A DNA stretch of 62,008 nucleotides, counting the filler. It is 7 parts of 7 records of this genome, joined end to end, with 100 filler letters (N's around TTAATTAATTAA, not from the genome) between each part and the next. Parts side by side here need not be neighbours in the genome. Positions count along the whole stretch, not along the records: positions 1 to 19,143 come from SRR31156797_18474; 6 more parts are not named here. One strand, 5' to 3'. Shown in pieces: positions 1 through 56,484 of the stretch. Under the pieces are notes generated by a model. It saw nothing but the letters and a program-made list of their open reading frames with translations, had not been told where the DNA came from and ran no database searches. The stretch's first letter is position 1. Each line of letters starts with the position of its first letter. The position numbers and the translations under genes were made by a program.

Positions 1-99
1 ATCTTTTTCATGATGCCGAATGGAGAAGTTTCATCGTATGATTTTATTATTGGTAATTTCTTCTTCTCCTTAAGGAGAAAGGAACACCATTTAAGAAAT

Positions 100-145
100 G
101 CCCTGTAGGGGCAGAATATTTATAGCCCAAGGCAACGCCCTGGGT
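100..145. repeat. REP-like composite palindromic element
   Basis: GCCCTGTAGGGGC hairpin followed by TAGCCCAAGGCAACGCCCTGGGT hairpin; GC-rich patch in an AT-rich intergenic region; resembles RAYT-associated REPs of Bacteroidota. Confidence 0.6.
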
Positions 146-712
146 TTTGAGGTAAATGAGAATCCGTTGCAAGCCTTGTCTTAATTTGAAATGCTGTGCT
201 TGTTTGCGACGGAAGAGGTCTTGTTTTGGTTTTGTTCTTAAACCAGATTGTCTCCTCCTTCTCCTTTGGTGTGAAAGAGGGAAATAAGAAAGAAAGAGAG
301 GCAGCTTGTCCTTCCAATGTCCTATGTAGTTGGTTCGAACTATGATGTTAATTCGGAAATGACTGTTGGTGGATAGGAAATGTATTGTGGAAATGTGATA
401 TGGTGTTCTTAGTCGTTATCGATAAGTGATGAAGCGAATGTAATTAGTGCTTGGCTTCGAGAAAAGAATGGGTAAGCAGATGAAATGCCATTAGAAATTA
501 AGGAATTGTATGTAAGATTTTTTAGAACTTATCACTATCTTAGTGATAGAGTATCAGATGAATAAGAAAAGGTAATTCCCATTTTATTTATGGCATAGAC
601 TGAAGAAGAAAGAGTGTCTGAGAGAAAAAAAAGGATAGAGTAGAGAGTAAAAACCTTGTAGACAATTGGTGAATGGATACCAGCTTGAAATGGATAAGGC
701 TATATTGAAAAA

Positions 713-922
713 GAGCAGGTACATGAGAAAAACGCGGAGGTAAACCCTTAGGGTGCGAAGGTAGTTGAATGTGTTGCGAAAGGTTGGCTTTTATAAGAAC
801 GTGCCGATGTTTGTGAAGCGAAATCCTTTGTTTGTTGAGCGAAAGCTGATGATTTGCTTGCGCAGGTTGAGTGTTGAAGAGAAAGGGTGGACGATTTGTA
901 TGCATAAGTATGTGTACCAAAA
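713..922 (+). repeat. Degenerate 21-bp tandem repeat, about 10 units
   Basis: GCGGA/GCGAA/GCGCA recurs at 734, 755, 776, 818, 839 and 860, all multiples of 21 apart. Confidence 0.7.
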
Positions 923-974
923 GATGAGGTAATACATCAAATCAAAATAAATCCAGTTATTCAAATAACACACA

Positions 975-1922
975 ATGGACAAAGCCCAAAAACGAATCTT
1001 CGATCAAGCTCGTCGCTTGGTAAGGTTTGGATCAGAAAACCCAAGCTTACAAAGCGATACTTTCTATCAGAAAGTGAATCAGAAACTAATTCAAATTGTC
1101 TCTCATCTCGACGAGCTTTATAAAAATCAGAACCTTATCACGACTAGAAAAAGTACTAGCAAAAAGCAAAGCCGACAAGAGCTGGAATCGGTTTGTTTAC
1201 AAGTAGCCAATTTGTTAAAAGGCTATGGAAACTTCTACGAATTTACTCCTTTTACTTCCTTAAAAGGATTTGGTAAGAATCAGCTTTACAAATACTCAGG
1301 AATAAATTTACTAATAAATTCAGAAAAACTAAAGGGAATTCTCGATCAATATCCTGTTGAGAGTAAGGAAGCTAAGGTTGATTGTGTATTGAAACAAGAC
1401 TTGATTGGCTGCATTGACAGCTTTGAAGAGTTGTTGGATATGCCTAAGAGAACCAATCAAAATTGTAAGAATACCAGTAAACAGATTCGGGATGGTTTAA
1501 AGCAATATCAGAATTTACTGAACGATGTTATCCTTCCCTATGTAAGGGGCAAGTACGAGAAGGATAATAATGATTTGATTGAAAGTTTCGAAAGAGTTTT
1601 GAAATCTGATAAAATAGCCAGAAGAAAGATCAGTTTGGCAGGAACGATTACCGATTTGGATGGCAAACCGATTCATAGACCAAGAGTAGCGGTTGACAAG
1701 AAAAAACCGATGATAAAACGTGGAAAAAAGGGCAATTATTTTATTAAGAACCTCACCGGTGGCATTCATACTCTTCAATTTAGCTGTCATGAGTACGAAA
1801 CTGTTGAAAAGAAAGTGCTCATAACGAAATCGTCTGTCTACAGGTTGGATGTGGTGATGAAACGAAACAGTGAACCGTTATCAGTGAGCAATGATCAACT
1901 AGCAGTAAACTGTAAAGAATGA
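975..1922 (+). CDS. Hypothetical protein: helical N-terminus plus C-terminal carboxypeptidase-regulatory-like (Ig-like) domain
   Basis: 315-aa ORF; C-terminal pattern LAGTITDLDGKPI...GNYFIKNLTGGIHTLQFSCHEYETVEK. Confidence 0.7.
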   Translation: MDKAQKRIFDQARRLVRFGSENPSLQSDTFYQKVNQKLIQIVSHLDELYKNQNLITTRKSTSKKQSRQELESVCLQVANLLKGYGNFYEFTPFTSLKGFGKNQLYKYSGINLLINSEKLKGILDQYPVESKEAKVDCVLKQDLIGCIDSFEELLDMPKRTNQNCKNTSKQIRDGLKQYQNLLNDVILPYVRGKYEKDNNDLIESFERVLKSDKIARRKISLAGTITDLDGKPIHRPRVAVDKKKPMIKRGKKGNYFIKNLTGGIHTLQFSCHEYETVEKKVLITKSSVYRLDVVMKRNSEPLSVSNDQLAVNCKE

Positions 1923-2054
1923 GCAGAGTCATTTATGTATTCTCAAAATGCGGTAATTGAAGAGTATTGGAATTGGCAACGAGCAAACTCAGCTCATTTT
2001 TTTATGCATGTATTTATAATGTGTATAAACATAAAAAACCAACATTGTTGAATG

Positions 2055-2070
2055 TATTTTTGTAGATTTG
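2055..2070 (+). promoter_or_regulatory. Bacteroidota sigma -7 box(es) upstream of the cassette array (Pc-like)
   Basis: TATTTTTG (2055-2062) and TAGATTTG (2063-2070) both match TAnnTTTG. Confidence 0.45.
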
Positions 2071-2105
2071 GAATTGTGCACTTTTAATCACGATATATTA
2101 AAAAT

Positions 2106-2146
2106 AAATGCACTTGTTGTGCATTTGCTAGCAAGTTACCATACAT
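2106..2146 (+). mobile_element. Putative attI-like primary recombination site
   Basis: AAATGCAC-TTGTT-GTGCATTT inverted repeat, TTGCTAGCAA palindrome, then core GTTACCATACAT at 2135. Confidence 0.45.
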
Positions 2147-2154
2147 TAAAAAAA

Positions 2155-3015
2155 ATGAAGAAGAAATTATACTTTGATAACACTGTGAATATTGAAACAA
2201 TTGAGATTTCTATTTTAATTGCAAACGGAAAAATTCGAGAATATCATGGTTTGAATTTCACAAATTATTTTGTTGCGTCAATGATTCCAAATCCTAACAT
2301 TAAGAAAGGAGATTTTGATTATAAAACAATTGAGATGCAAGAGGATTTTAGACTATCAAAAGTGGATAAATATGATAGAAAGAAAAAAGGAATAAAAGCT
2401 AATTACAAAATTGACTGTTATGAATTATTCCAGTTGACTTTAAAAGATGTATATCTGAATCTAAGTTTTATTGAAAAATTTCGCATTGATTATGCCAAGA
2501 ATCAGACGATCTTCCATGAAATGAAATTCAAGCAAAAACTTGTGTACTTTTTGTTGTTCAGTATCCCAGCTCTGCTCATCGGATATTTTTTAAACAAATC
2601 AGGAAAACAGATGAGCAATAATCAGAAAGCAATTCAAACTACTGATACAATTTATACGAAACCCATAGAGTTACCAGCTGAAGTAATTAAAACTTCCTCC
2701 GTTATCTTCTTTATTCCTAATTCGGTAGAATTTGATTCTATCGCAAAATCGGATAACTCTGAAGGAATTTATGAGGTTTCGAGTGACTTTGGATATTATG
2801 CAAATAAAATTGTTGAATTATATAAAGATTCCACATTAAACGTTAGTATAAGTAACAAGAGACTGTTTAAGGCAAACAATGTGCTTATTAGCAAGAATGA
2901 ACAAGATAGTCCTTATGGTATCATATTAGTTAAGTACAATGAATTCAAAATTGAAACTGGGGTGTATACTGATATAGGTATACAACAAATGATAAAGGAA
3001 TATTTTAAGGAATAA
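2155..3015 (+). CDS. Hypothetical single-TM protein (cassette 1 cargo)
   Basis: ATG at 2155 after a poly-A tract, 20 nt after the GTT core; central TM LVYFLLFSIPALLIGYFL; very AT-rich. Confidence 0.75.
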   Translation: MKKKLYFDNTVNIETIEISILIANGKIREYHGLNFTNYFVASMIPNPNIKKGDFDYKTIEMQEDFRLSKVDKYDRKKKGIKANYKIDCYELFQLTLKDVYLNLSFIEKFRIDYAKNQTIFHEMKFKQKLVYFLLFSIPALLIGYFLNKSGKQMSNNQKAIQTTDTIYTKPIELPAEVIKTSSVIFFIPNSVEFDSIAKSDNSEGIYEVSSDFGYYANKIVELYKDSTLNVSISNKRLFKANNVLISKNEQDSPYGIILVKYNEFKIETGVYTDIGIQQMIKEYFKE

Positions 3016-3023
3016 TAGAGAAA

Positions 3024-3164
3024 ACGTGTGGTAACAAAAGTTAAAATTATTGGGCATTGACGCTCAACTAGATAAAGTAACAAAAATAATAAACGCTGGG
3101 CGGTTTTGATAAGGCGGCGGTTGTAAATCGTCCACGAAATTTTAGCAAGACCGTTGTGTGGCAT
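3024..3164. mobile_element. attC-like recombination site
   Basis: ...TGGTAAC-aaaa-GTTAAAATT...AATTTTAGC-aagacc-GTTGTGTGG: R''-spacer-L''...L'-spacer-R' layout forming an imperfect long hairpin. Confidence 0.7.
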
Positions 3165-3375
3165 ACGAAGAACTTATGCAGATACATTGTAGTAACTTGA
3201 ATAAATGCATAAAAAACATTTGATATCCCGAAAGGTTATTTAAACAAGAGAACAATGACACTTGTTCAACAAAAGATTTAGAATACAACGATAAAATAAT
3301 GAATGCTATTGAATTCAAAGAATCTTTATTCAATAGTATAAGCAACAGTATAATATTGAAATAAAGAAGAAGACT

Positions 3376-3666
3376 ATGTTTATTATATCACTGACATACA
3401 AAGACAAACTTGAAAAAATTGACAGAGAATTAGAAAATCATGTTCAATTTTTAAAAAATCAATATGCATTAGGAAATTTTATAGCATCGGGCAGAAAAAT
3501 CCCAAGAACAGGAGGAATAATATTGTCTCAAATGAAAGACAGAAACGAACTTGAAAACATCGTTCATAATGATCCTTTTTATAAGAATGATTTGGCTGAT
3601 TATGATATAACTGAATTTATTCCATCTATGACAAGTGATGAATTAAAGTGTCTAATAGAGAAATAA
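3376..3666 (+). CDS. YciI family protein (cassette 2 cargo)
   Basis: 96 aa; H-x-x-FL...F-I-A-SG-RK-x-P-R-T-GG...DPF motifs. Confidence 0.85.
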   Translation: MFIISLTYKDKLEKIDRELENHVQFLKNQYALGNFIASGRKIPRTGGIILSQMKDRNELENIVHNDPFYKNDLADYDITEFIPSMTSDELKCLIEK

Positions 3667-3670
3667 CAAA

Positions 3671-3691
3671 GTACGACCACACAACAAAAGT
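3671..3691. mobile_element. Truncated terminal attC-like half-site (R'' only)
   Basis: CCACACAAC (3677-3685) is the exact reverse complement of GTTGTGTGG (3153-3161); followed by AAAAGT as in the first site. Confidence 0.6.
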
Positions 3692-3732
3692 AACCCTTGC
3701 ATATCCTCATAAAATTACATGAATACATTATA

Positions 3733-3773
3733 AAAGCCTTAAAAGTTTGCCATTGACAAACTTTTAAGACTTT
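3733..3773. terminator. Hairpin between convergent genes
   Basis: AAAGCCTTAAAAGTTTG-loop-CAAACTTTTAAGACTTT. Confidence 0.55.
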
Positions 3774-3834
3774 GTTATAACTATTTCATCCCCTTGATTT
3801 TAATATCATAGATTTAGGGGGGTCTATCCGTTTC

Positions 3835-5724
3835 TTAATAATTAAATCCAATTAAATTGTGATACATTAACCAGGGAATAAAAACCAGAACTGCAAGAGC
3901 AATAATCGATTGATATACCAAATCGAAAGTTCTCAGCTCTTTAAATCGAATAGCCTTTGTCAATAAATAGATGGTAACAAGCTCCAATGGAATAATTAAA
4001 AAAGGTAAGACTAATGCTATTTTAAAGAGCAAAGGGATATCATAGAAGAATTGCATAGGGTCTGTAGTAAATAAAGCGTAAGCAAGTACGACAACAAATA
4101 CAACAATTAAAGCAGCCAGTGAGAAATTGATTTTTTTAAGTAAGTGCCTCTCTCGATTACTAACAAATAGTTTACCTAAGCCACTTGTAATGATATAAAT
4201 CAATAGAATGAGGAAAATACTACCAATCCATATTCTTTGAAATTTAAGGGGTTCGTACCATTTTAACTTCTCATAAGCATGAGCATCGGTAAAGAAATAA
4301 GATATATCGCCTTTTTTGTTCTTGCCAAATGCCAAGTGTCTGTCCCATTTACCACGGAATGTTAAATCAGATATAGGAACAAGTTTATCTTGCCATTCCA
4401 CTATTTCAAGCGTACTATCTTTTGATACCACATGAATTTCAGGAACCATTCCAAATAAAATACTTATTTTATCCAATGTTGTGTGAGCATACCGTACATA
4501 CCTATATGCACCGCTAAACAATTCTAATGGTTCATCAACACGCCCTGCCTTGCTTGAACTGGTCGGCCTTGTTTTTTGTATCATGCAATCGGGCATTAAT
4601 CGTGCAAATAAATCATACGTTAACTGGTTCATAAACATTCGGCTTTTCTGCTGCTTTGTATTCGATGAATTAACACAAATAAACACACCTACATTTCTTT
4701 CAAGTATCAATGTTAATTGACTTCTAAAACCTTGAATACCTCCAGTATGCCATACCGTTCTCTCTCCGTACCATTGTGATTCCGTAAAGCCTAATAGCCA
4801 ACCATAATTAGCTTTTTCGTACTGCTTAAATCCAGTATTATGCATTTTAGAAACTGTGGAGGAATCTAAAAATTGAGTTTCATTAAAAAAACCACTATTC
4901 AGCCACATAGCTATATAGTGCCCCATGTCAGCAGCTGTAGAACGAAATGAGCCCGCAGGATAGAAGTGATGATAAGCAGTCTTGTATGGAATCAGTTGCT
5001 CGCCCTTTTGAAAGTAACTGGTCGCATAGTTTTCTTCGAGTTCTACTTGTCTTCTAAATCCACTATGATTCATTTCCAGAGGATTCAAAACATTTTCTTT
5101 TACATACTGATGAAAAGGCATGCCTGATACTTCTTCAACAATAAGCCCCAGTAATGCATAGCCATTGTTTGAGTAGGCTATAGCCTTGCCAGAGGGGCGT
5201 ATCTGTGGCGACATACGGGTTTCTATATATTGAGCTAGGGGTATTACCTTATCCTCAGAATGAACAATTGTAGCTATGTTATTATCATCAAAACCAGCGG
5301 TATGGGTTAAAAGATGTCTTACCGTAATAGAATCATTGAATGGATAACTTAATTGAATGGATGTAAGGTAACTATTAACATCCCTGTCCAATTCTAATTT
5401 TCCATCTTCGTATAGTTTCATAACAGCAGTACCTACAAAGGTTTTAGAAATAGAGCCTACTCCAAATATGGACGTGTGAGCATCTACCGCTTTTTTCGAT
5501 TCAATATCAGTTACACCATAGCCATTAAGGTGAAGAATTGAGTCGCCCTGCATGACTACGATAGTAGCCCCCGCAATATTAAGGGATTTCATATTTTCTG
5601 TAAATGTAGAATCGATCCAGGCATTTAAATCAGATGTTTGCACATCTGTATTTTGAGAATATATTTTATTCCCGAATGAAAATAAAGAACATAAAATTAA
5701 AAATGTAATGAGTAAGTGTTTCAT
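3835..5724 (-). CDS. Serine hydrolase (beta-lactamase/AmpC-like) with C-terminal TM helices
   Basis: Signal peptide; SISK (SxxK), LLTHTAG, YSN and HTG motifs; four hydrophobic C-terminal helices. Confidence 0.9.
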   Translation of the reverse strand: MKHLLITFLILCSLFSFGNKIYSQNTDVQTSDLNAWIDSTFTENMKSLNIAGATIVVMQGDSILHLNGYGVTDIESKKAVDAHTSIFGVGSISKTFVGTAVMKLYEDGKLELDRDVNSYLTSIQLSYPFNDSITVRHLLTHTAGFDDNNIATIVHSEDKVIPLAQYIETRMSPQIRPSGKAIAYSNNGYALLGLIVEEVSGMPFHQYVKENVLNPLEMNHSGFRRQVELEENYATSYFQKGEQLIPYKTAYHHFYPAGSFRSTAADMGHYIAMWLNSGFFNETQFLDSSTVSKMHNTGFKQYEKANYGWLLGFTESQWYGERTVWHTGGIQGFRSQLTLILERNVGVFICVNSSNTKQQKSRMFMNQLTYDLFARLMPDCMIQKTRPTSSSKAGRVDEPLELFSGAYRYVRYAHTTLDKISILFGMVPEIHVVSKDSTLEIVEWQDKLVPISDLTFRGKWDRHLAFGKNKKGDISYFFTDAHAYEKLKWYEPLKFQRIWIGSIFLILLIYIITSGLGKLFVSNRERHLLKKINFSLAALIVVFVVVLAYALFTTDPMQFFYDIPLLFKIALVLPFLIIPLELVTIYLLTKAIRFKELRTFDLVYQSIIALAVLVFIPWLMYHNLIGFNY

Positions 5725-5854
5725 AATTTTTGATTTGAATATTAAAGTTTAGGGTGTAAGATGCCTATCGGTTGGAAAACCGAGAACACATACTGATGTA
5801 TTGAAATTAGATTTGAGCGATTGAGCTAGGTCGGATCAAGGCTAGCTAACAGGT

Positions 5855-6262
5855 TTAAGTGGATTCCTGAGGGTGCAGTTTTTTTTCAATCAGCGTTTTA
5901 GCAACAAACCACAGCAGAAGTGATAAAAGATAAATAAGGCTTCCATAAATGGTCACAATTACAGTAACTTCTAGTCCTCCAAATATTAATGAGGGCGCAT
6001 AATCAATTGATTTTACCATTCCTTCTTCTAATATCATAAAAAAGCTAGAAAACCCAAACATTTGACCCAATATTCCGGTAACCAAGGCAAATAAACCTAT
6101 TGATTTTCCATATCCAAGCTTTCTTAAGAAAACGGCATTGTCTGTATGTTTGGAAGTGTAAACCACAATAAAATGATAAACCATCCAGGCAATAGTCATA
6201 ATTAACAAAATAGTAAGAACCCACATAAAAAAAGATCCTCCCCTAATAAATAGTTCTTTCAT
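5855..6262 (-). CDS. Small MotA/TolQ/ExbB-like three-TM membrane protein
   Basis: GG-x-FM-x-x-LT N-terminus; GLFALVTGILGQ and GGL...TIYG helices. Confidence 0.7.
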   Translation of the reverse strand: MKELFIRGGSFFMWVLTILLIMTIAWMVYHFIVVYTSKHTDNAVFLRKLGYGKSIGLFALVTGILGQMFGFSSFFMILEEGMVKSIDYAPSLIFGGLEVTVIVTIYGSLIYLLSLLLWFVAKTLIEKKLHPQEST

Positions 6263-6413
6263 AAATAATTAAATTTGCGATTAACACTTCTGCCAAATTA
6301 TGTGAGATAAGGAAATTCATCAAGGTCGAATCCGTACCTTAAGCGGTTGTTTATCGACTCTAAATGGTCATAACGATAGTTTTGCCGAAATTAGCCCGAA
6401 ATAATTAAATAAA

Positions 6414-7181
6414 ATGCGTAAAAAACTAAAAAATCTTCATTTACATATTGCCTATTGGATTTTTGCCTTGCTCGTATTAATCCGAACCTTTGGATTTTCG
6501 TGGGACAGCAAAATGAATGCTTTTTATTTCATAAGCATGCTTTTTCCAATTGTTATTGGAACCTCCTATTTTTTCAACTATGTGCTTGTACCAAAGTATT
6601 ACTTTACAAAGAGGTATGCGAGGTTTGCATTTTATACCTTCTGCACAGCTATAATTTCGGTATACCTCGAATTATTAGTTTTGGTTTTTTCTTTTGTCTA
6701 CCTGGTCGATCTGAACTATCAAAGTTTGGGTCCTGATGCTCGACCTATGCTTTTAGCAGTTGTATTGTATTTGTTGGTATTTGTTGGAGCGTTTCTATTG
6801 ATGATAAATCAAATCAATGAAAACCAACAGGTCATTCAACAACTTTTAGATGATAAAAAGAAAATGAAAAAGTCCTTTCTCGAAATCATGTCTAATCGAA
6901 AAATGATCAAAATACCTTATGACGATATTGTTTACATAGAAAGTTTATCTGATTATATCAGGGTAAATACCATCGACAAAGAAATTACAAGCAAAGAGAA
7001 AATAGGTCGACTATCAGAAAGATTACCCGATAATTTTTTAAGAATTCACCGTTCCTTTATAGTTAATACTGATAGAATTAAAGAGCGTTCATTAGATAAG
7101 GTTCTGGTTGATGATATCATGCTAAATATTGGCAGAAGCTATAGAAAAGCAGTTAAAGAATTGTTGAATAGTAATGTCTAA
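6414..7181 (+). CDS. Membrane-anchored LytTR family regulator (no receiver domain)
   Basis: Four N-terminal TM helices; LytTR domain IVYIESLSDY...FLRIHRSFIVN...IGRSYR. Confidence 0.9.
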   Translation: MRKKLKNLHLHIAYWIFALLVLIRTFGFSWDSKMNAFYFISMLFPIVIGTSYFFNYVLVPKYYFTKRYARFAFYTFCTAIISVYLELLVLVFSFVYLVDLNYQSLGPDARPMLLAVVLYLLVFVGAFLLMINQINENQQVIQQLLDDKKKMKKSFLEIMSNRKMIKIPYDDIVYIESLSDYIRVNTIDKEITSKEKIGRLSERLPDNFLRIHRSFIVNTDRIKERSLDKVLVDDIMLNIGRSYRKAVKELLNSNV

Positions 7182-7314
7182 TTAATGTAGCAAGTCAATC
7201 AAATCACCTCAACTTCTACTAGGGATTAAGAATAGATTCTAAAAATAAAATTCATTTTCGTATAGGGTATTCTTAAATTGAGACATCATATACATACACA
7301 CTAAACTAAAACCG

Positions 7315-8100
7315 ATGAATAAGTTCCCCATTTTACTGCTTTTACTAGCAGCATCTTTACTGTCATGTCAGCCAAAGCAGAAAGAGACAAGTATTGCAAG
7401 TGCTCAACTAGAGCAGAAAGCCGAATATCCTAAGTTGGTAGAGTTTCCATCTGTTGATTCTATAATGATTACTGGAAATTTGTATCAAATAGATGATACA
7501 TCGCCATTCATATTGCTTTGTCACCAGGCACGCTTCAATAAGTTTGAATATGCTGGAACTGCTGAACGTTTGAATAAAATGGGATTCAATTGTTTGGCTA
7601 TTGATCAGCGATCGGGAGGACCCATTGGAGATACACAAAATGAGACTTACTTGAGAGCTTTAAAGGTGGGGAAAGGTGTTGATTATGTAGATGCAGAGGT
7701 TGATATAGTTGCTGCACTCAATTACATCAAAAAGAATTATTCCGATAAAGTTATTCTTTGGGGATCGTCTTATTCATCGACTTTGGCATTGTATTTAGCC
7801 GTTGAGAAGGAAGAAGTAGCTGCAGTGCTATCGTTTAGCCCGGGTAACTATTTAGCGGATAAAAAGGGCTCATTAATAGAAAAATTGGAAGGATTCGAGA
7901 AGCCAATGTTCCTGACCTCTTCCAAGTCGGAAGCAAAGTATGTTGAGGCGCTATTGGAAAAGCACGAATTAATGGATAAGCAAGTTCAATTCATTCCTGA
8001 AGGTCCAGGGCATCATGGGTCAAGAGCGCTCTGGAAAAACCAGCAGGGAGGAGAAGAGTATTGGGCAGCCATTACGGATTTTTTAAATCGCATAAAATAG
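7315..8100 (+). CDS. Alpha/beta hydrolase lipoprotein
   Basis: Lipobox LLSC; nucleophile elbow WGSSYS; C-terminal HHG. Confidence 0.75.
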   Translation: MNKFPILLLLLAASLLSCQPKQKETSIASAQLEQKAEYPKLVEFPSVDSIMITGNLYQIDDTSPFILLCHQARFNKFEYAGTAERLNKMGFNCLAIDQRSGGPIGDTQNETYLRALKVGKGVDYVDAEVDIVAALNYIKKNYSDKVILWGSSYSSTLALYLAVEKEEVAAVLSFSPGNYLADKKGSLIEKLEGFEKPMFLTSSKSEAKYVEALLEKHELMDKQVQFIPEGPGHHGSRALWKNQQGGEEYWAAITDFLNRIK

Positions 8101-8139
8101 TAGTTAGGATTAGTTTATATAAATACACAGACTTGATTT

Positions 8140-8169
8140 GGGAATGGCATTTTGCTGTTCCCTTTTTTT
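8140..8169 (+). terminator. Rho-independent terminator
   Basis: GGGAATGGCA-TTT-TGCTGTTCCC followed by a T-tract. Confidence 0.65.
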
Positions 8170-8233
8170 ATTCTCTCATCTTGAGTGGGAATTGAGATGA
8201 GGTATTGTTAAAACAAACTATCTTAGCATACAA

Positions 8234-9025
8234 ATGCTAGCCATTCGAACATATCAACCAAAGCAATATTCCGATTTGATAGAACGGATTTGGATATTGG
8301 AGACAGGTGATGAACCAAGTGATGTGATTGTACCACCAAGTCAGTACATGCAGCTAATTATACCATTGGAAGGATCCAATTACATTCGAAATGGTAAAAC
8401 TGTAAACAAGATGATTGTTGAGGGTATCAGTTTGCAAACCAATTGTGTTCACTATCCTGTAGGGACTAAGTTAATTGGGATTCGATTTTATCCGTATGGA
8501 ATGTTTCCTTTTTTGAGATACGAAGGAAAAGATTTACTGAATGAAATGATTGAGGTATCACTTCCTGGTAATTTTAGCTTTAGTAAGGGTAAAGATGAGG
8601 CATTACTGAATGAAGCCAACCTGCTACTTGAAGAACTGTACGATGAGGCTGCACATCAAAAAATCAAAGCTTTAAAAGAGTATTATCAAACAGCCCGATG
8701 GAGCGATGATTCTCTTTCGATAGAAGAATATTGCAAGCTGAATGGAACTAATTATACGACGCTTAACCGAAAGTTTACGCAGATAACAGGGCTTAGTACC
8801 AAAAAGTTTGAACGATTGGTAAAATTCAGAAAATCACTTTGTAAATTGATCGATAGCGAGGATCAACTGACCAGCATAGGTGTAGATTCCGGTTATTTCG
8901 ATCAGGCGCACTTCATTCGTGAATTCAAATTGTTCCTCAATTGCACTCCATCTACCTATCAATCGCTCATTCAATCTGCCGATGAGGATACCAAAATCAT
9001 TAATTACAATTTCAGATTGTTCTAG
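8234..9025 (+). CDS. AraC family transcriptional regulator
   Basis: C-terminal GYFDQAHFIREFK HTH motif; GIRFYPYG N-domain. Confidence 0.9.
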   Translation: MLAIRTYQPKQYSDLIERIWILETGDEPSDVIVPPSQYMQLIIPLEGSNYIRNGKTVNKMIVEGISLQTNCVHYPVGTKLIGIRFYPYGMFPFLRYEGKDLLNEMIEVSLPGNFSFSKGKDEALLNEANLLLEELYDEAAHQKIKALKEYYQTARWSDDSLSIEEYCKLNGTNYTTLNRKFTQITGLSTKKFERLVKFRKSLCKLIDSEDQLTSIGVDSGYFDQAHFIREFKLFLNCTPSTYQSLIQSADEDTKIINYNFRLF

Positions 9026-9097
9026 CTGCTTAAAATATACAATTCTCCCAACTTGATCTGCTATAGCTTTGTCTTTCGAAATCAAAAATCAATAGAC

Positions 9098-9487
9098 ATG
9101 AGAATAGAACATTTGGCAATCTGGACCAGAGATTTGGAAGCAATGAAAGACTTTTATACAAAGTATTTTAACATGCAGGCCAGCGATAAATATCACAATC
9201 CTAAAAAAGGATTTACTTCCTATTTTCTCAGCTTCGAAGAATCTTCGAGCAGGTTGGAAATAATGCATAGCATAAATGTAAGTTATGCGATGTGTGGACG
9301 ATCGAGCGCACTGGGATTGGCTCATTTTGCCATATCGGTTGGCGGTAAGCAAAAGGTAGATGAACTCACCGAACGGCTTCGCAATGATTCATATGAAATA
9401 GCAGGTGAACCTAGAACCACTGGCGACGGATATTACGAAAGTGTTGTGTTGGATTGTGAGGGAAATTGTGTGGAGATAACTGAATAA
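9098..9487 (+). CDS. VOC/glyoxalase family protein
   Basis: MRIEHLAIW...GLAHFAISVG...PRTTGDGYYES; ATG at 9098 preferred. Confidence 0.9.
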   Translation: MRIEHLAIWTRDLEAMKDFYTKYFNMQASDKYHNPKKGFTSYFLSFEESSSRLEIMHSINVSYAMCGRSSALGLAHFAISVGGKQKVDELTERLRNDSYEIAGEPRTTGDGYYESVVLDCEGNCVEITE

Positions 9488-9492
9488 TTGCG

Positions 9493-10155
9493 ATGAAAAT
9501 AAAGAATATAGTATTCGACTTTGGTGGAGTATTGATTGATTGGAATCCACGTTATCTGTACCGAAAGGTATTTGATGATGAAGATAAATTGGAGCATTTT
9601 TTAAGTGTGGTTTGTCATTCGGAATGGAATCAGCAATTGGATGCAGGTATCTCTTTTGATGAGGCAATTGTGGAACGAATAAAAAGTTTTCCACAATACG
9701 AAAAGGAGATTAGAAAATACCAAAGCAATTGGATAGAGATGATTGGAGGTGAGATTAAGGAAAATACCTGTTTACTTGATGCCCTGAGTCAAAAATATCA
9801 ATTGTATGGTCTTACCAATTGGTCAGCCGAAACCTTTCCTTTGGTTTACGATCAATTCGGTTTTTTCACAAAACTAAAAGGAATACTAGTCTCGGGAGAG
9901 GAAGAATTAGTGAAACCTGATGTAAGAATATTCGATTTACTTCTGGAGAGATACAAGCTAAAAGCAGAAGAAACACTTTTCATAGATGATAATAAGGGGA
10001 ATATTGATACTGCTAAAAGCTTGGGTTTTCAAACGATCCATTTAGAAAAAGAGGTGAATTTATCTTCAGAATTAAAGAAAATAGGAGTTTTATCTTCAGA
10101 ACCAAGGTTAAGATCTATCTCTGTCCATCGATATAGTGTAAGTATCATATCTTAA
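9493..10155 (+). CDS. HAD superfamily phosphatase
   Basis: VFDFGGVL, LTN, KP and FIDD motifs. Confidence 0.9.
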   Translation: MKIKNIVFDFGGVLIDWNPRYLYRKVFDDEDKLEHFLSVVCHSEWNQQLDAGISFDEAIVERIKSFPQYEKEIRKYQSNWIEMIGGEIKENTCLLDALSQKYQLYGLTNWSAETFPLVYDQFGFFTKLKGILVSGEEELVKPDVRIFDLLLERYKLKAEETLFIDDNKGNIDTAKSLGFQTIHLEKEVNLSSELKKIGVLSSEPRLRSISVHRYSVSIIS

Positions 10156-13191: not shown

Positions 13192-14466
13192 TTATTCTTC
13201 GTACATAAATTTATCCGTGAAAGCAGGTTTTAAATCATCTAACCAAAGTGCTTTCGGATCGTATTTGGCAAAGAATGGTTGTCCTACCCAGTCGTTGTTT
13301 CGTCCCTGAATAAAGTTTAGAACAAATACTTTTTCGCCATTAATTTCGGTGATACCAGCAACTTGTACTTTACCAGGATTAGCTGACATACTAGGTCCAC
13401 GAACGGTACGGCAAACACCACTTACCTGAGAATAGGCTTTTCGGAAGATGTTCCAGGCCTCTTCTAAAGTAATCGCAAAATATTCCTGAGCACCCGTTTC
13501 GCGAGCAATAAACATGTAGTAAGGAATCATTCCCATATCTACTTGTTTTCTCCACATGCGAGCCCACATATCCGCATCATCGTTCAAATGCTTCATTAAT
13601 GGCGACTGAGTTCTGATAACAGCACCCGTTGCACGAATGTTTTTAACAGCTTGGGCTACAGCTTCAGTACTCATTTCGTTAATGTGGTTGAAATGTGCCA
13701 TAATAGACAAATTCAATCCGTTGTCAGCAATCTTTTGGAATACATCCAATAATTGTTGAGCATCATCATCCGATGTGTAACGGTATGGCCAGTATCCTAA
13801 TGTTTTGGTACCAATACGAATGGTTTTCAAGTTTGGAATATCAGCAGCAAGAATTGCATCGATATAGTTTTCAAACATTTTCGATTTCATTACCATTGGA
13901 TCTCCACCCGTAAACAGTAAATCTGTAATTTGTGGATTTTCTCTTAAGTAAGCAATCACCAAATCAACTTGTTTCATGGCAAACTTCAATTCATCGATTC
14001 CTGTAAATTGAGGCCAACGGAAACAAAAAGTACAATAAGCATGACAAGTTTGTCCCTGAGTTGGGAAAAATAGCATGGTTTCATTGTATTTGTGCTGAAT
14101 ACCAACCAATTTCTCACCGTTTAATTCAGGAACATTATGAACCTGTCCGGCAGGATTTGGATTTAAATCCATCCTGATTTGATTGGCTGCTTTGGTAATT
14201 TCCGGGCGAGATGCACCACTCTTGATTAATACAGCCATGCGATCGTAATGCTTGGCTGATAACATATCTTTTTGAGGAAATGTTAGGATGAAAATTGGAT
14301 CATTTTCAAAATTATCCCAATCAATTAACTCATCAACTACATAGTTATTTGCTTTAAATGGAAGAACCTCTCCAACTACCTCGATGTCAAAAATCTGCTC
14401 TTCACTCAATCTACTGATCTGAGGGATTTTCTTAAAGGTCTTCAATGTGTAAGCTCTATACTTCAT
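13192..14466 (-). CDS. KamA family radical SAM aminomutase
   Basis: CHAYCTFC (CxxxCxxC), TGGDP, PYYMF, NPGK. Confidence 0.9.
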   Translation of the reverse strand: MKYRAYTLKTFKKIPQISRLSEEQIFDIEVVGEVLPFKANNYVVDELIDWDNFENDPIFILTFPQKDMLSAKHYDRMAVLIKSGASRPEITKAANQIRMDLNPNPAGQVHNVPELNGEKLVGIQHKYNETMLFFPTQGQTCHAYCTFCFRWPQFTGIDELKFAMKQVDLVIAYLRENPQITDLLFTGGDPMVMKSKMFENYIDAILAADIPNLKTIRIGTKTLGYWPYRYTSDDDAQQLLDVFQKIADNGLNLSIMAHFNHINEMSTEAVAQAVKNIRATGAVIRTQSPLMKHLNDDADMWARMWRKQVDMGMIPYYMFIARETGAQEYFAITLEEAWNIFRKAYSQVSGVCRTVRGPSMSANPGKVQVAGITEINGEKVFVLNFIQGRNNDWVGQPFFAKYDPKALWLDDLKPAFTDKFMYEE

Positions 14467-14723
14467 AGGCTAATATCCGGTTTTGATGTTTTAACATACA
14501 ATCGAGTTGTGAAAACGATTGCTTTAGTTGTAATTCGTTTATTCAAAATCAAGCTATTAGGATATGGTAGCAACGAAATTGGTGAAAACTCGTGCGAGTC
14601 ATAGGCTACATTTAGGATTCCTTATTTAAATTTAAGGAAAAAATGGGATATTTTCCATATAAACTGTTCATAGTCAGCTGTAAAAGGAAGGCTATTATCC
14701 CAGTGTATCAAATAGCTGTGGCA

Positions 14724-14731
14724 CAAAAGTA
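14724..14731 (-). promoter_or_regulatory. Bacteroidota -7 promoter box for the kamA-like gene
   Basis: TACTTTTG on the minus strand; a divergent TACTTTTG at 14843-14850 serves the U32 gene. Confidence 0.5.
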
Positions 14732-14950
14732 TATTTTTTAAATCTCTTAAACAAGAGGGGAATGCCTATATAAAATGTGCAGTGCTAAGGATTTAACTTT
14801 TCAGACCTTCTTATTTGTTTTGCAGGAATGACTCATAAAGATTACTTTTGCTGAGGATCAGACAGAAGATGCACGGCTTGTAAAATCCTTATTTAACAGG
14901 TATTTCGTGTATTCTAAATAAAATTTTTTTAGCATTTCGATATTTATTTA

Positions 14951-55847: not shown

Positions 55848-56183
55848 ATGAGAATAAAAGAAGATATAAATATAAATCTGAATGCCTTTCTTAAAATCTG
55901 TAAAAGTCACAATGTTAAATATTTGTATGCTTTTGGCTCAGCAATCAATGAAAAGTTTAACAGTAAAAAAAGTGATATTGACTTAGTTGTAGAATTAGAC
56001 ATTTCAGACCCTCTTGAACATGGTGAGAACCTTATTAATCTATGGGATGACCTGGAGATTTTTTTTAATCGAAAAGTTGACTTATTAACAGAAGAGTCTA
56101 TTCACAATCCTATTCTCAAAAAAAGTATCGATAACTCAAAAATTTTAATTTATGACGGAACGGGGAAGGAAATACTTATCTGA
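55848..56183 (+). CDS. MNT nucleotidyltransferase antitoxin (MntA-like)
   Basis: FGS...SDIDL; RKVDL. Confidence 0.88.
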   Translation: MRIKEDININLNAFLKICKSHNVKYLYAFGSAINEKFNSKKSDIDLVVELDISDPLEHGENLINLWDDLEIFFNRKVDLLTEESIHNPILKKSIDNSKILIYDGTGKEILI

Positions 56184-56484
56184 TATTTTAAGAGCAATTG
56201 AATTAGTCGAATCATTTATACAAGATATTGAAACATTTGATCAATATCAAAAAGATCTCAAAACCCAAAGTGCTATTGAAAGACAACTAGGAATAATTGG
56301 GGAGCCCGTTAATAAATTTAAACAGGAATGTCCAAATGAAATATTACTACATACTGTTAAAATAGTAGGCTTTAGAAATAGAATTATTCATGCATACGAC
56401 AGTATTGATAATTCAATAGTTTGGGTTATCGTTAAGAAGTACTTAAACCCCTTAAAAGAAGAGGTTAACAATAAAATTAATTAA
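56152..56484 (+). CDS. HEPN RNase toxin (HepT/DUF86)
   Basis: AIERQLGIIGE; RNRIIHAY (RX4HXY); overlaps the MNT gene. Confidence 0.88.
   Translation: MTERGRKYLSDILRAIELVESFIQDIETFDQYQKDLKTQSAIERQLGIIGEPVNKFKQECPNEILLHTVKIVGFRNRIIHAYDSIDNSIVWVIVKKYLNPLKEEVNNKIN

Follow-up and report, generated by a model that had tools for sequence, protein, structure and literature searches.

Positions 2068-3775 of a 62-kb stretch of a marine Bacteroidota chromosome (the window, along whose whole length all positions are counted) are very probably a small array of two gene cassettes without an integrase. The array would belong to an integron-like system of Marinifilaceae and other Bacteroidia that is served in trans by an Xer/IntI-like recombinase. 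A first-pass annotation, made from the letters of the window, had read the region as mobile cassettes of a Bacteroidota integron-like system. The cassette footprint that it described is confirmed, and its interpretation is supported by a swap of cassettes in L001, by the family of repeats to which the junction site belongs and by the complementarity of the two ends of individual cassettes. Two features lay beyond its view: the recombinase accompanying such arrays is not an IntI, and the array is headed by an attI-like site of its own. The array works like an integron and lies outside the integron family as currently defined.

Direct support comes from own-end complementarity, from replacement at G/TT between genomes of 95% identity, from the constant linkage and orientation of arrays and recombinase genes, from the better single-strand folding of rejoined sites, and from repeated copies of a cassette within one array. 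In what follows, L labels denote fetched loci and G labels the genomes of relatives, G001 being the genome of L001 (an uncultured Marinifilum sp.).

Cassette ends and their complementarity

The four cores lie where the first-pass annotation had placed them (Table 1), and the matches between them are reproduced. The ends of cassette 1 (GTTACCATACAT and ACGTGTGGTAAC) are reverse complements at 10/12 positions, and those of cassette 2 (GTTGTGTGG and CCACACAAC) at 9/9. The two cores that meet at the junction (3024-3035 and 3153-3164) agree only at AAC/GTT, as had been claimed. Of the mismatches in the first cassette, one is an unpaired A at stem position 11 that is found throughout the family, and the other is a T.G wobble. 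The core pair of cassette 2 also delimits other, unrelated cassettes in relatives. Cassette 1 has a G+C content of 26-32%, against 35-40% in the flanks.

By themselves the core matches in the window are unremarkable, because inverted pairs are abundant there: the first 6 kb hold 112 pairs of at least 11 nt, and the core pairs of the two units are outside the 25 longest. They become significant because each core abuts a conserved repeat element, so that a single comparison is possible per cassette. This can be put to a count over many loci. The own-end test compares the six variable bases after GTT with the six before the AAC of the next site on the same strand. Among 30 consecutive pairs, 17 are perfect, including all but two of the pairs spaced by 900 nt or less. 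Non-own ends match perfectly in 7 of 870 comparisons, cores of the same junction in 1 of 45, and none of 100,000 shuffles reaches 17. The enrichment of cassette-specific complementarity over shuffled controls, on which the first-pass annotation had staked its proposal, is therefore present. Over 369,262 nt, a strict pair rule finds 83 pairs in the direction of the arrays, against 10 on the opposite strand. A relaxed cassette finder, without the AACAA and G+C conditions, was dropped, as its 510 pairs were swamped by false ones.

Replacement of cassettes between relatives

L001, which was reached through the beta-lactamase-like gene beside the array, aligns to window 1-2119 at 95.2% identity and to 3687-5848 at 93.5%. 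The intervening 2120-3686 has no counterpart in L001, which carries instead 2816 nt with other genes (a ~490-aa thioredoxin-like protein, a tiny membrane open reading frame (ORF) and a 313-aa protein). The sequence common to both extends to ...CAAG/TTA. The first cassette of L001 starts with GTTATGGC and ends with GCCATAAC, and is followed by a site that shares motifs with window 3033-3058. Thus the comparison with a close relative, which the first-pass annotation had proposed, finds the flanks kept, the cassettes different and the exchange at G/TT. The flanking genes are 94-97% identical, whereas the distal element of the array (S2, see below) is 73% and the stretch beyond it 48% identical, and therefore the variable block spans about 2138-3800. 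The inverse core of the last L001 cassette is degenerate.

Duplication within an array is also seen. In L137 (relative G050) an 852-nt cassette occurs three times with 99.8-100% identity (5722-6573, 7712-8565 and 13915-14766), once as the first cassette, and other cassettes lie between the copies. In the set examined, no identical cassettes were common to different genomes. Two further candidates were set aside. An oyster-metagenome contig that joins 3156 to 3682 is given no weight, having 20 letters on one side and intervening letters that are unknown. L002, a locus with a 77%-identical beta-lactamase-like gene, has no array within ~490 nt beyond that gene.

A family of attC-like sites

The junction element at window 3033-3154 is one of many. 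It occurs in 19 places (E<=1e-5) in G001, four of them in tandem 560-820 nt apart and many at the ends of very small contigs; of 97 genomes from the same bacterial family, 25 carry it. The motif thus has the further genomic copies that the first-pass annotation had led one to look for. One genome holds single copies dispersed over its chromosome. Fifteen aligned copies of this type (type A) have a mean identity of 82%. A profile search returned 67 sites in 40 loci, in length classes of ~120 and ~180 nt; across the system, site lengths include about 60, 120 and 180-200 nt. Other site types retain the L stem with different letters.

The R stem continues past its 9 bp: in 59 of 61 distinct cassettes the A at position 11 has no partner, and positions 12-14 are mostly paired. 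For the site as a whole we propose an R'' that ends in AAC, followed by four A and an L stem of 9 bp; next come an internal loop, a G+C stem of 5 bp and a middle part that varies, and after the return strands six bases without a partner lead to the GTT of R'. In the 15 copies, the proposed R and L stems have 85% of their cells paired; with the partner slid, the figure is 32-54%. Rejoining a site with the start of its own cassette improves its fold: rejoined sites are more stable than the array form in 48/48 cases, and the bottom-strand mean is -25.5 kcal/mol rejoined vs -19.9 kcal/mol in array form (z -5.25 against mononucleotide shuffles).

In some relatives the sites are short, with ~40 nt between cores, and fold as textbook R/L hairpins with bulges. 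Such compact bulged sites make up arrays of at least 15 cassettes in L153 (3647-15636) and L154 (from G021 and G012), where the crossover is A/TT. These arrays lie directly behind recombinase homologues of 45-49% identity.

Insertion sequences (IS) have been found in the sites as well. An IS with a 515-aa transposase (DUF772 and DDE_Tnp_1_6) occupies the precise point of crossover in attC-like sites: the last bases of the site are followed by the IS end, and beyond the IS comes the GTT core of the next cassette. Copies are present in L138 (7282-8829 and 9943-11490, minus strand) and at the ends of several G001 contigs (L013 start, L017, L032-L034, L071 and L078); many contigs of that draft assembly end in a copy.

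The head and the distal end of the array

The first-pass annotation had the array run from 2135 to 3691. Its two cassettes stand, and its bounds do not: the array starts at about 2068, with the attI-like site, and ends near 3775. The head was recognized by homology. Window 2073-2137 has homologues of 83-88% identity that follow immediately on the stop codon of a recombinase gene in G001 contig 6 and G004; three further array heads without a recombinase gene also match. In the window and in five other checked copies of this family (S0), the first cassette starts at G/TT and ends with a matching inverse core. In G001 contig 6 and G004 the docking site beside the recombinase gene is 3' of the gene and not 5'. 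The window copy is without the first palindrome arm present in other copies.

At the other end lies a member of the S2 repeat family, with a terminator-like hairpin (z -3.8 and -4.6). Of thirteen S2 copies seen, 12 immediately follow a variable ...AAC core; the core of the L001 copy is degenerate. We considered S2 as a clean attC site, which is unsupported in G001 contig 9. Of the array boundaries, the end at G/TT 3775/3776 is the least secure.

Two loci of G001 show S2 in different company. In L077 (G001 contig 9, 28000-38000) the ORFs are spaced by a ~340-nt element that has S2 first and a conserved leader before the start codon last; variable ...AAC cores precede these spacers, and matching GTT cores were not found there. 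In L071 (~5560-5800, G001 contig 22) a short coding remnant lies between an S2 element and the next attI-like head; it may resemble a transposase of the IS200/RAYT type.

Table 1. Features of the cassette array and its neighbour in the window
Feature	Position	Strand	Remarks
attI-like docking site (S0 family)	2068..2137	+	GTGCAC-type palindromes, including hairpin 2106-2126; ends ...CAAG/TT
Crossover of attI-like site	between 2135 and 2136		
R' core of cassette 1, GTTACCATACAT	2135..2146	+	pairs with 3024-3035 save a wobble and an unpaired A
Cassette 1, ~1018 nt	2136..3153	+	with an attC-like site of its own (3' end); missing from the orthologous locus of L001
ORF of cassette 1, 286 aa from ATG	2155..3015	+	only match DUF3081, sub-threshold
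R'' inverse core of cassette 1, ACGTGTGGTAAC	3024..3035	+	
attC-like site, type A, ~122 nt from AAC to GTT	3033..3154	+	nhmmer E 5e-35 against the family profile
R' core of cassette 2, GTTGTGTGGCAT	3153..3164	+	starts GTTGTGTGG (3153-3161); 9/9 complementary to 3677-3685
Cassette 2	3154..~3775	+	best guess of distal crossover G/TT at 3775/3776
ORF of cassette 2, 96 aa, YCII-related domain	3376..3666	+	Pfam PF03795, E 1.3e-13
R'' inverse core of cassette 2	3674..3685	+	ends CCACACAAC (3677-3685)
S2 repeat-family member, distal end of array	3686..3775	+	terminator-like hairpin 3733-3773
beta-lactamase-like gene, neighbour of array	3835-5724	-	

The recombinase

The first-pass annotation had stated that no integrase lies near the array, and within the window this holds. 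The G001 gene that best matches the integron-integrase model encodes 368 aa and lies at the start of contig 6, where an attI-like site and two cassettes follow it on the same strand. Its product scores 202 bits with TIGR02249 (cut-off 265), and its best NCBIfam model is NF040815 (220.2 bits, cut-off 220). Against 2a3v (Vibrio cholerae IntI) the match is split: residues 99-266 correspond to IntI 13-180 and residues 288-363 to IntI 244-319, so that IntI residues 181-243 have only 21 counterparts. The additional domain specific to IntI, near patch III, is thus absent from the array-adjacent recombinase. The nearest solved structure by sequence is XerA-like (4a8e, 134 bits), with one contiguous match. 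Six genomes, at least three of which have a main contig of megabase scale, were searched with TIGR02249. In none was a canonical IntI found over the cut-off, and in each the best match is the array-adjacent gene, with profile positions ~180-238 unmatched. Separate XerC/D-like genes of ~300 aa lie elsewhere in the genomes.

Homologues are present in 39 of 97 genomes of the family (E<=1e-40) and in 117 of 301 sampled genomes of the order (E<=1e-60), among them Marinifilum, Labilibaculum, Draconibacterium and others. Their source names are tyrosine-type recombinase or site-specific tyrosine recombinase/integron integrase. The gene is found in 21 of 25 site-positive and in 18 of 72 site-negative genomes, a comparison uncorrected for kinship.

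The first-pass annotation had suggested a search for arrays with adjacent tyrosine recombinases. Seventeen recombinase loci were fetched with longer flanks. Nine have profile sites, and all 29 matches are downstream and on the strand of the gene. Another five have cassettes that only the inverted-repeat rule brings out, in one case as a single pair. Cassettes are absent in the other three, two of which are short contig ends. In all, the array is directly downstream of the gene and co-oriented with it in 13-14 of the 17 loci. In L138, eight cassettes with perfect cores follow the recombinase, interrupted by the two IS copies.

The protein has an N-terminal extension of ~95 residues, of which the first ~70 are conserved. 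This part is modelled as a small alpha/beta fold with a pLDDT (predicted local distance difference test) of 88.8. With VIA-align it resembles the N-domain of T4 UvsW (Z 7.3, root-mean-square deviation 1.8, 58 aligned) and the N-terminal DNA-binding domain of archaeal XPB (Z 6.1 and 5.4), all in the middling range of the tool. Foldseek gave nothing at E<=0.001; its best hits are to XPB, at E 0.11, and the SMARCAL1 HARP domain ranks 37. A kinship of the modelled domain to the structure-specific DNA-binding domains HARP, UvsW-N and XPB-DRD is a lead only.

Proposed mechanism and its weak points

A cassette of this system would comprise an ORF poor in promoters and, behind it, a recombination site. 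Once the cassette is excised as a circle, the outer cores of the site (R'' ending in AAC and R' starting with GTT) would pair with each other. Insertion at G/TT would split the site, and therefore each core in an array would match the far end of its own cassette. New cassettes would dock at the attI-like head (2068-2137), and the array may be expressed from there. The most likely enzyme is a tyrosine recombinase that acts in trans from a gene elsewhere in the genome. It would combine an XerA/IntI-like core, devoid of the IntI-specific insertion, with the N-terminal domain of ~70 aa. We infer that the array-associated recombinase catalyses the exchange of cassettes, and that folded single strands are its substrate; which of the two strands it would use is likewise a matter of inference.

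A number of results weigh against this account. The window holds no tyrosine recombinase, nor a trace of one, and its own genome is only presumed to encode the enzyme still. Evidence for movement comes from assembled contigs only (22 runs are listed). Of the 30 consecutive pairs, 13 have own ends that do not match, and most of these are spaced by more than 1 kb. We attribute these to undetected site types or to IS in between, as shown for some of them. In G001 contig 9, S2 is part of a conserved ~340-nt spacer and the own-end rule is not seen.

The folding results are mixed as well. In array form the fold of the window junction (3020-3168) is no more stable than that of its shuffles (z +0.67 and +0.95). 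The first-pass annotation had attC become self-complementary once rejoined. For this junction the claim is borne out on the top strand (-13.3 kcal/mol) and fails on the bottom strand (-8.6 kcal/mol): the expected hairpin forms only when the junction is rejoined with the start of its own cassette, and only on the top strand. In integrons, extrahelical bases direct recombination to the bottom strand. Over all sites here, which have the unpaired A at position 11 and, in the short ones, bulges, the bottom strand is the more stable in 26 of 48, which is no preference. The 15 aligned copies are too similar to show covariation: one pair is changed on both sides, a number that shuffles equal. The long-range stem was recovered by RNAalifold on neither strand.

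Other explanations

Could the array have been built by this same system and be immobile here, for want of a recombinase or through decay of the sites? This we consider unlikely, but it deserves a fair hearing, as the window has no recombinase, its attI-like site is without the first arm, its junction site folds weakly and the last cassette of L001 has a degenerate inverse core. What speaks against such a fossil is that cassette content differs between genomes only ~5% apart, and therefore turnover is recent; that the cores of cassette 2 are perfect (9/9); and that the 95%-identical relative G001 encodes an intact recombinase elsewhere in its genome. It is much less probable that we are dealing with an ordinary integron remnant, i.e., a cluster of attC sites lacking integron integrases (CALIN), with a canonical IntI elsewhere or recently lost and the Xer-like gene a bystander. 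The logic of the cassettes, as brought out by the own-end test, is indeed integron logic, and integrase-less clusters are frequent in published surveys, as far as the accessible part of one of them goes (PMC4889954). A canonical IntI over the TIGR02249 cut-off is nevertheless missing from all six genomes, where the insertion-less gene beside the arrays is the best match, and a bystander accords poorly with a gene that is co-oriented and directly upstream of arrays in 13-14 of the 17 loci.

Two further explanations do without an integron-like process and appear improbable in the extreme. The elements could be intergenic repeats of the repetitive extragenic palindromic (REP) or miniature inverted-repeat transposable element (MITE) kind, or terminators, the matching ends being due to chance or a by-product and the genes immobile. 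The elements are dispersed as well as arrayed, with single copies over one chromosome; S2 has a terminator-like hairpin; and short inverted repeats are plentiful in AT-rich DNA. The target duplications or inverted ends of such elements are not in evidence, however, as cores of the same junction are complementary in only 1/45: it is the ends of gene-bearing units that match (17/30), and not the flanks of single elements (1/45). Neither do such repeats account for the strand bias of 83 to 10, for the exchange of whole units at G/TT between relatives, or for the unit triplicated within an array. The remaining candidate is a module of the Xer/dif type. In pdif modules of Acinetobacter plasmids, XerC and XerD act on double-stranded dif-like sites that flank each module, and the enzyme associated with the present arrays is Xer-like in architecture. 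Yet separate XerC/D-like genes of ~300 aa exist elsewhere in the genomes, the cores are cassette-specific, with the pairing conserved rather than the sequence, and the sites are imperfect hairpins of 60-200 nt and not 28-bp dif-like sequences. We retain the integron-like system acting in trans as the preferred explanation.

Relation to known systems

The likeness to integrons is extensive. As in sedentary chromosomal integrons and CALIN (e.g., the Vibrio cholerae superintegron), small ORFs are arrayed in one orientation with imperfect-hairpin sites between them. The crossover is at G/TT; R' and R'' are complementary within a cassette and not to those of the neighbour; sites are homogeneous within a lineage, as are the Vibrio repeats; and one docking site lies beside the recombinase gene. 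Cassette duplication within arrays, integrase-less satellite arrays and IS homing to the sites are also common to both. Like a CALIN, the window has two sites and no integrase, one of type A and the other the candidate S2 site.

The differences concern the enzyme, its placement and the sites. IntI has an additional domain that the Bacteroidia enzyme lacks, whereas the latter has the extra N-terminal domain. The Bacteroidia gene points towards the cassettes and its docking site follows the stop codon, unlike the arrangement in integrons. The integron R stem is 7 bp; the Bacteroidia sites have 9 bp, the conserved unpaired A and at least three further pairs, and their cores read GTTRNNNNN, unlike integron cores. 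In Treponema denticola and some other phyla, co-oriented ("inverted") integrons are known, whose integrases still have the additional domain of IntI. They are alike in that the integrase is transcribed in the direction of the cassettes, but the Bacteroidia enzyme is without that domain. Xer enzymes resolve chromosome dimers at a single dif site. A XerA-like protein is the nearest solved structure by sequence. From archaeal XerA and bacterial XerC/XerD the Bacteroidia enzyme differs in heading arrays, in its added N-terminal domain and in coexisting with ordinary Xer-like genes.

The accessible part of a survey of integrons reports 21 tyrosine recombinases near attC that lack intI_Cterm, scattered in the tree, with fewer than 3 sites, and does not count them as IntI (Cury et al., 2016; PMC4889954). 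In so far as that part describes them, those cases are similar in having no IntI insertion and in lying near attC-type sites, whereas the Bacteroidia enzyme forms one coherent family, which in many genomes heads arrays whose size reaches at least 15 cassettes. Smyshlyaev et al. (2021) remark that their integron-like subgroup does not conserve the insertion throughout. Within Bacteroidetes, the available portion of the IntegronFinder 2.0 paper gives a complete integron only in Salinibacter, and the portion of its Table S1 that covers Labilibaculum antarcticum and two Draconibacterium genomes enters them with 0 complete integrons, 0 CALIN and 0 In0 (PMC9024848). A 2021 review lists Bacteroidota among the integron-bearing phyla without detail, and a 2024 preprint, in its accessible part, counts them among the clades previously without integrons (10.1101/2024.07.02.601686). 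We found no published description of the Bacteroidia system in a literature search whose coverage excluded subscription journals and the supplements of bioRxiv preprints.

Integron biology rests on one enzyme family, which is defined by the additional domain. Surveys that use this definition find almost no integrons in Bacteroidota, to judge from their accessible parts (PMC9024848, 10.1101/2024.07.02.601686). Here a statistically unambiguous cassette footprint, with turnover between near-identical strains, is linked to a recombinase of different architecture. An array-adjacent enzyme without the hallmark of IntI points to an overlooked parallel system of gene capture. We lean, with some reserve, towards a parallel class of integrons in Bacteroidia, in which folded-hairpin cassettes are captured at a docking site by an Xer/IntI-like enzyme that never had the insertion or lost it. 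The insertion, regarded as essential to attC recombination, would then be dispensable, and the N-terminal domain would recognise DNA structure instead. Finders would miss both the enzyme and the sites of this class, and a large pool of cassettes would be hidden from them. If the enzyme is active, it would be a second, independent solution to recombination of single-strand hairpins, which could be compared with that of IntI. The cassette pool of marine and sediment Bacteroidia would then be large and unexplored, and detection tools would need a second integrase profile and new site models.

Other features of the window

An Rfam scan of window 1-10,000 gave nothing relevant; Rfam contains no attC family. 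The first 975 nt are free of ORFs, have an excess of G over C and lie upstream of a 315-aa CarboxypepD_reg-like gene; they are 96% identical to L001. Their only Rfam match is a sub-threshold one to Acido-Lenti-1 (99-144). Both assemblies break near the first ~109 bases, which are multi-copy in the probable source run. Far from the array, at 55848-56484, adjacent genes for a nucleotidyltransferase (Polbeta/NTP_transf_2) and a HepT-like RNase form a pair resembling a toxin-antitoxin system.

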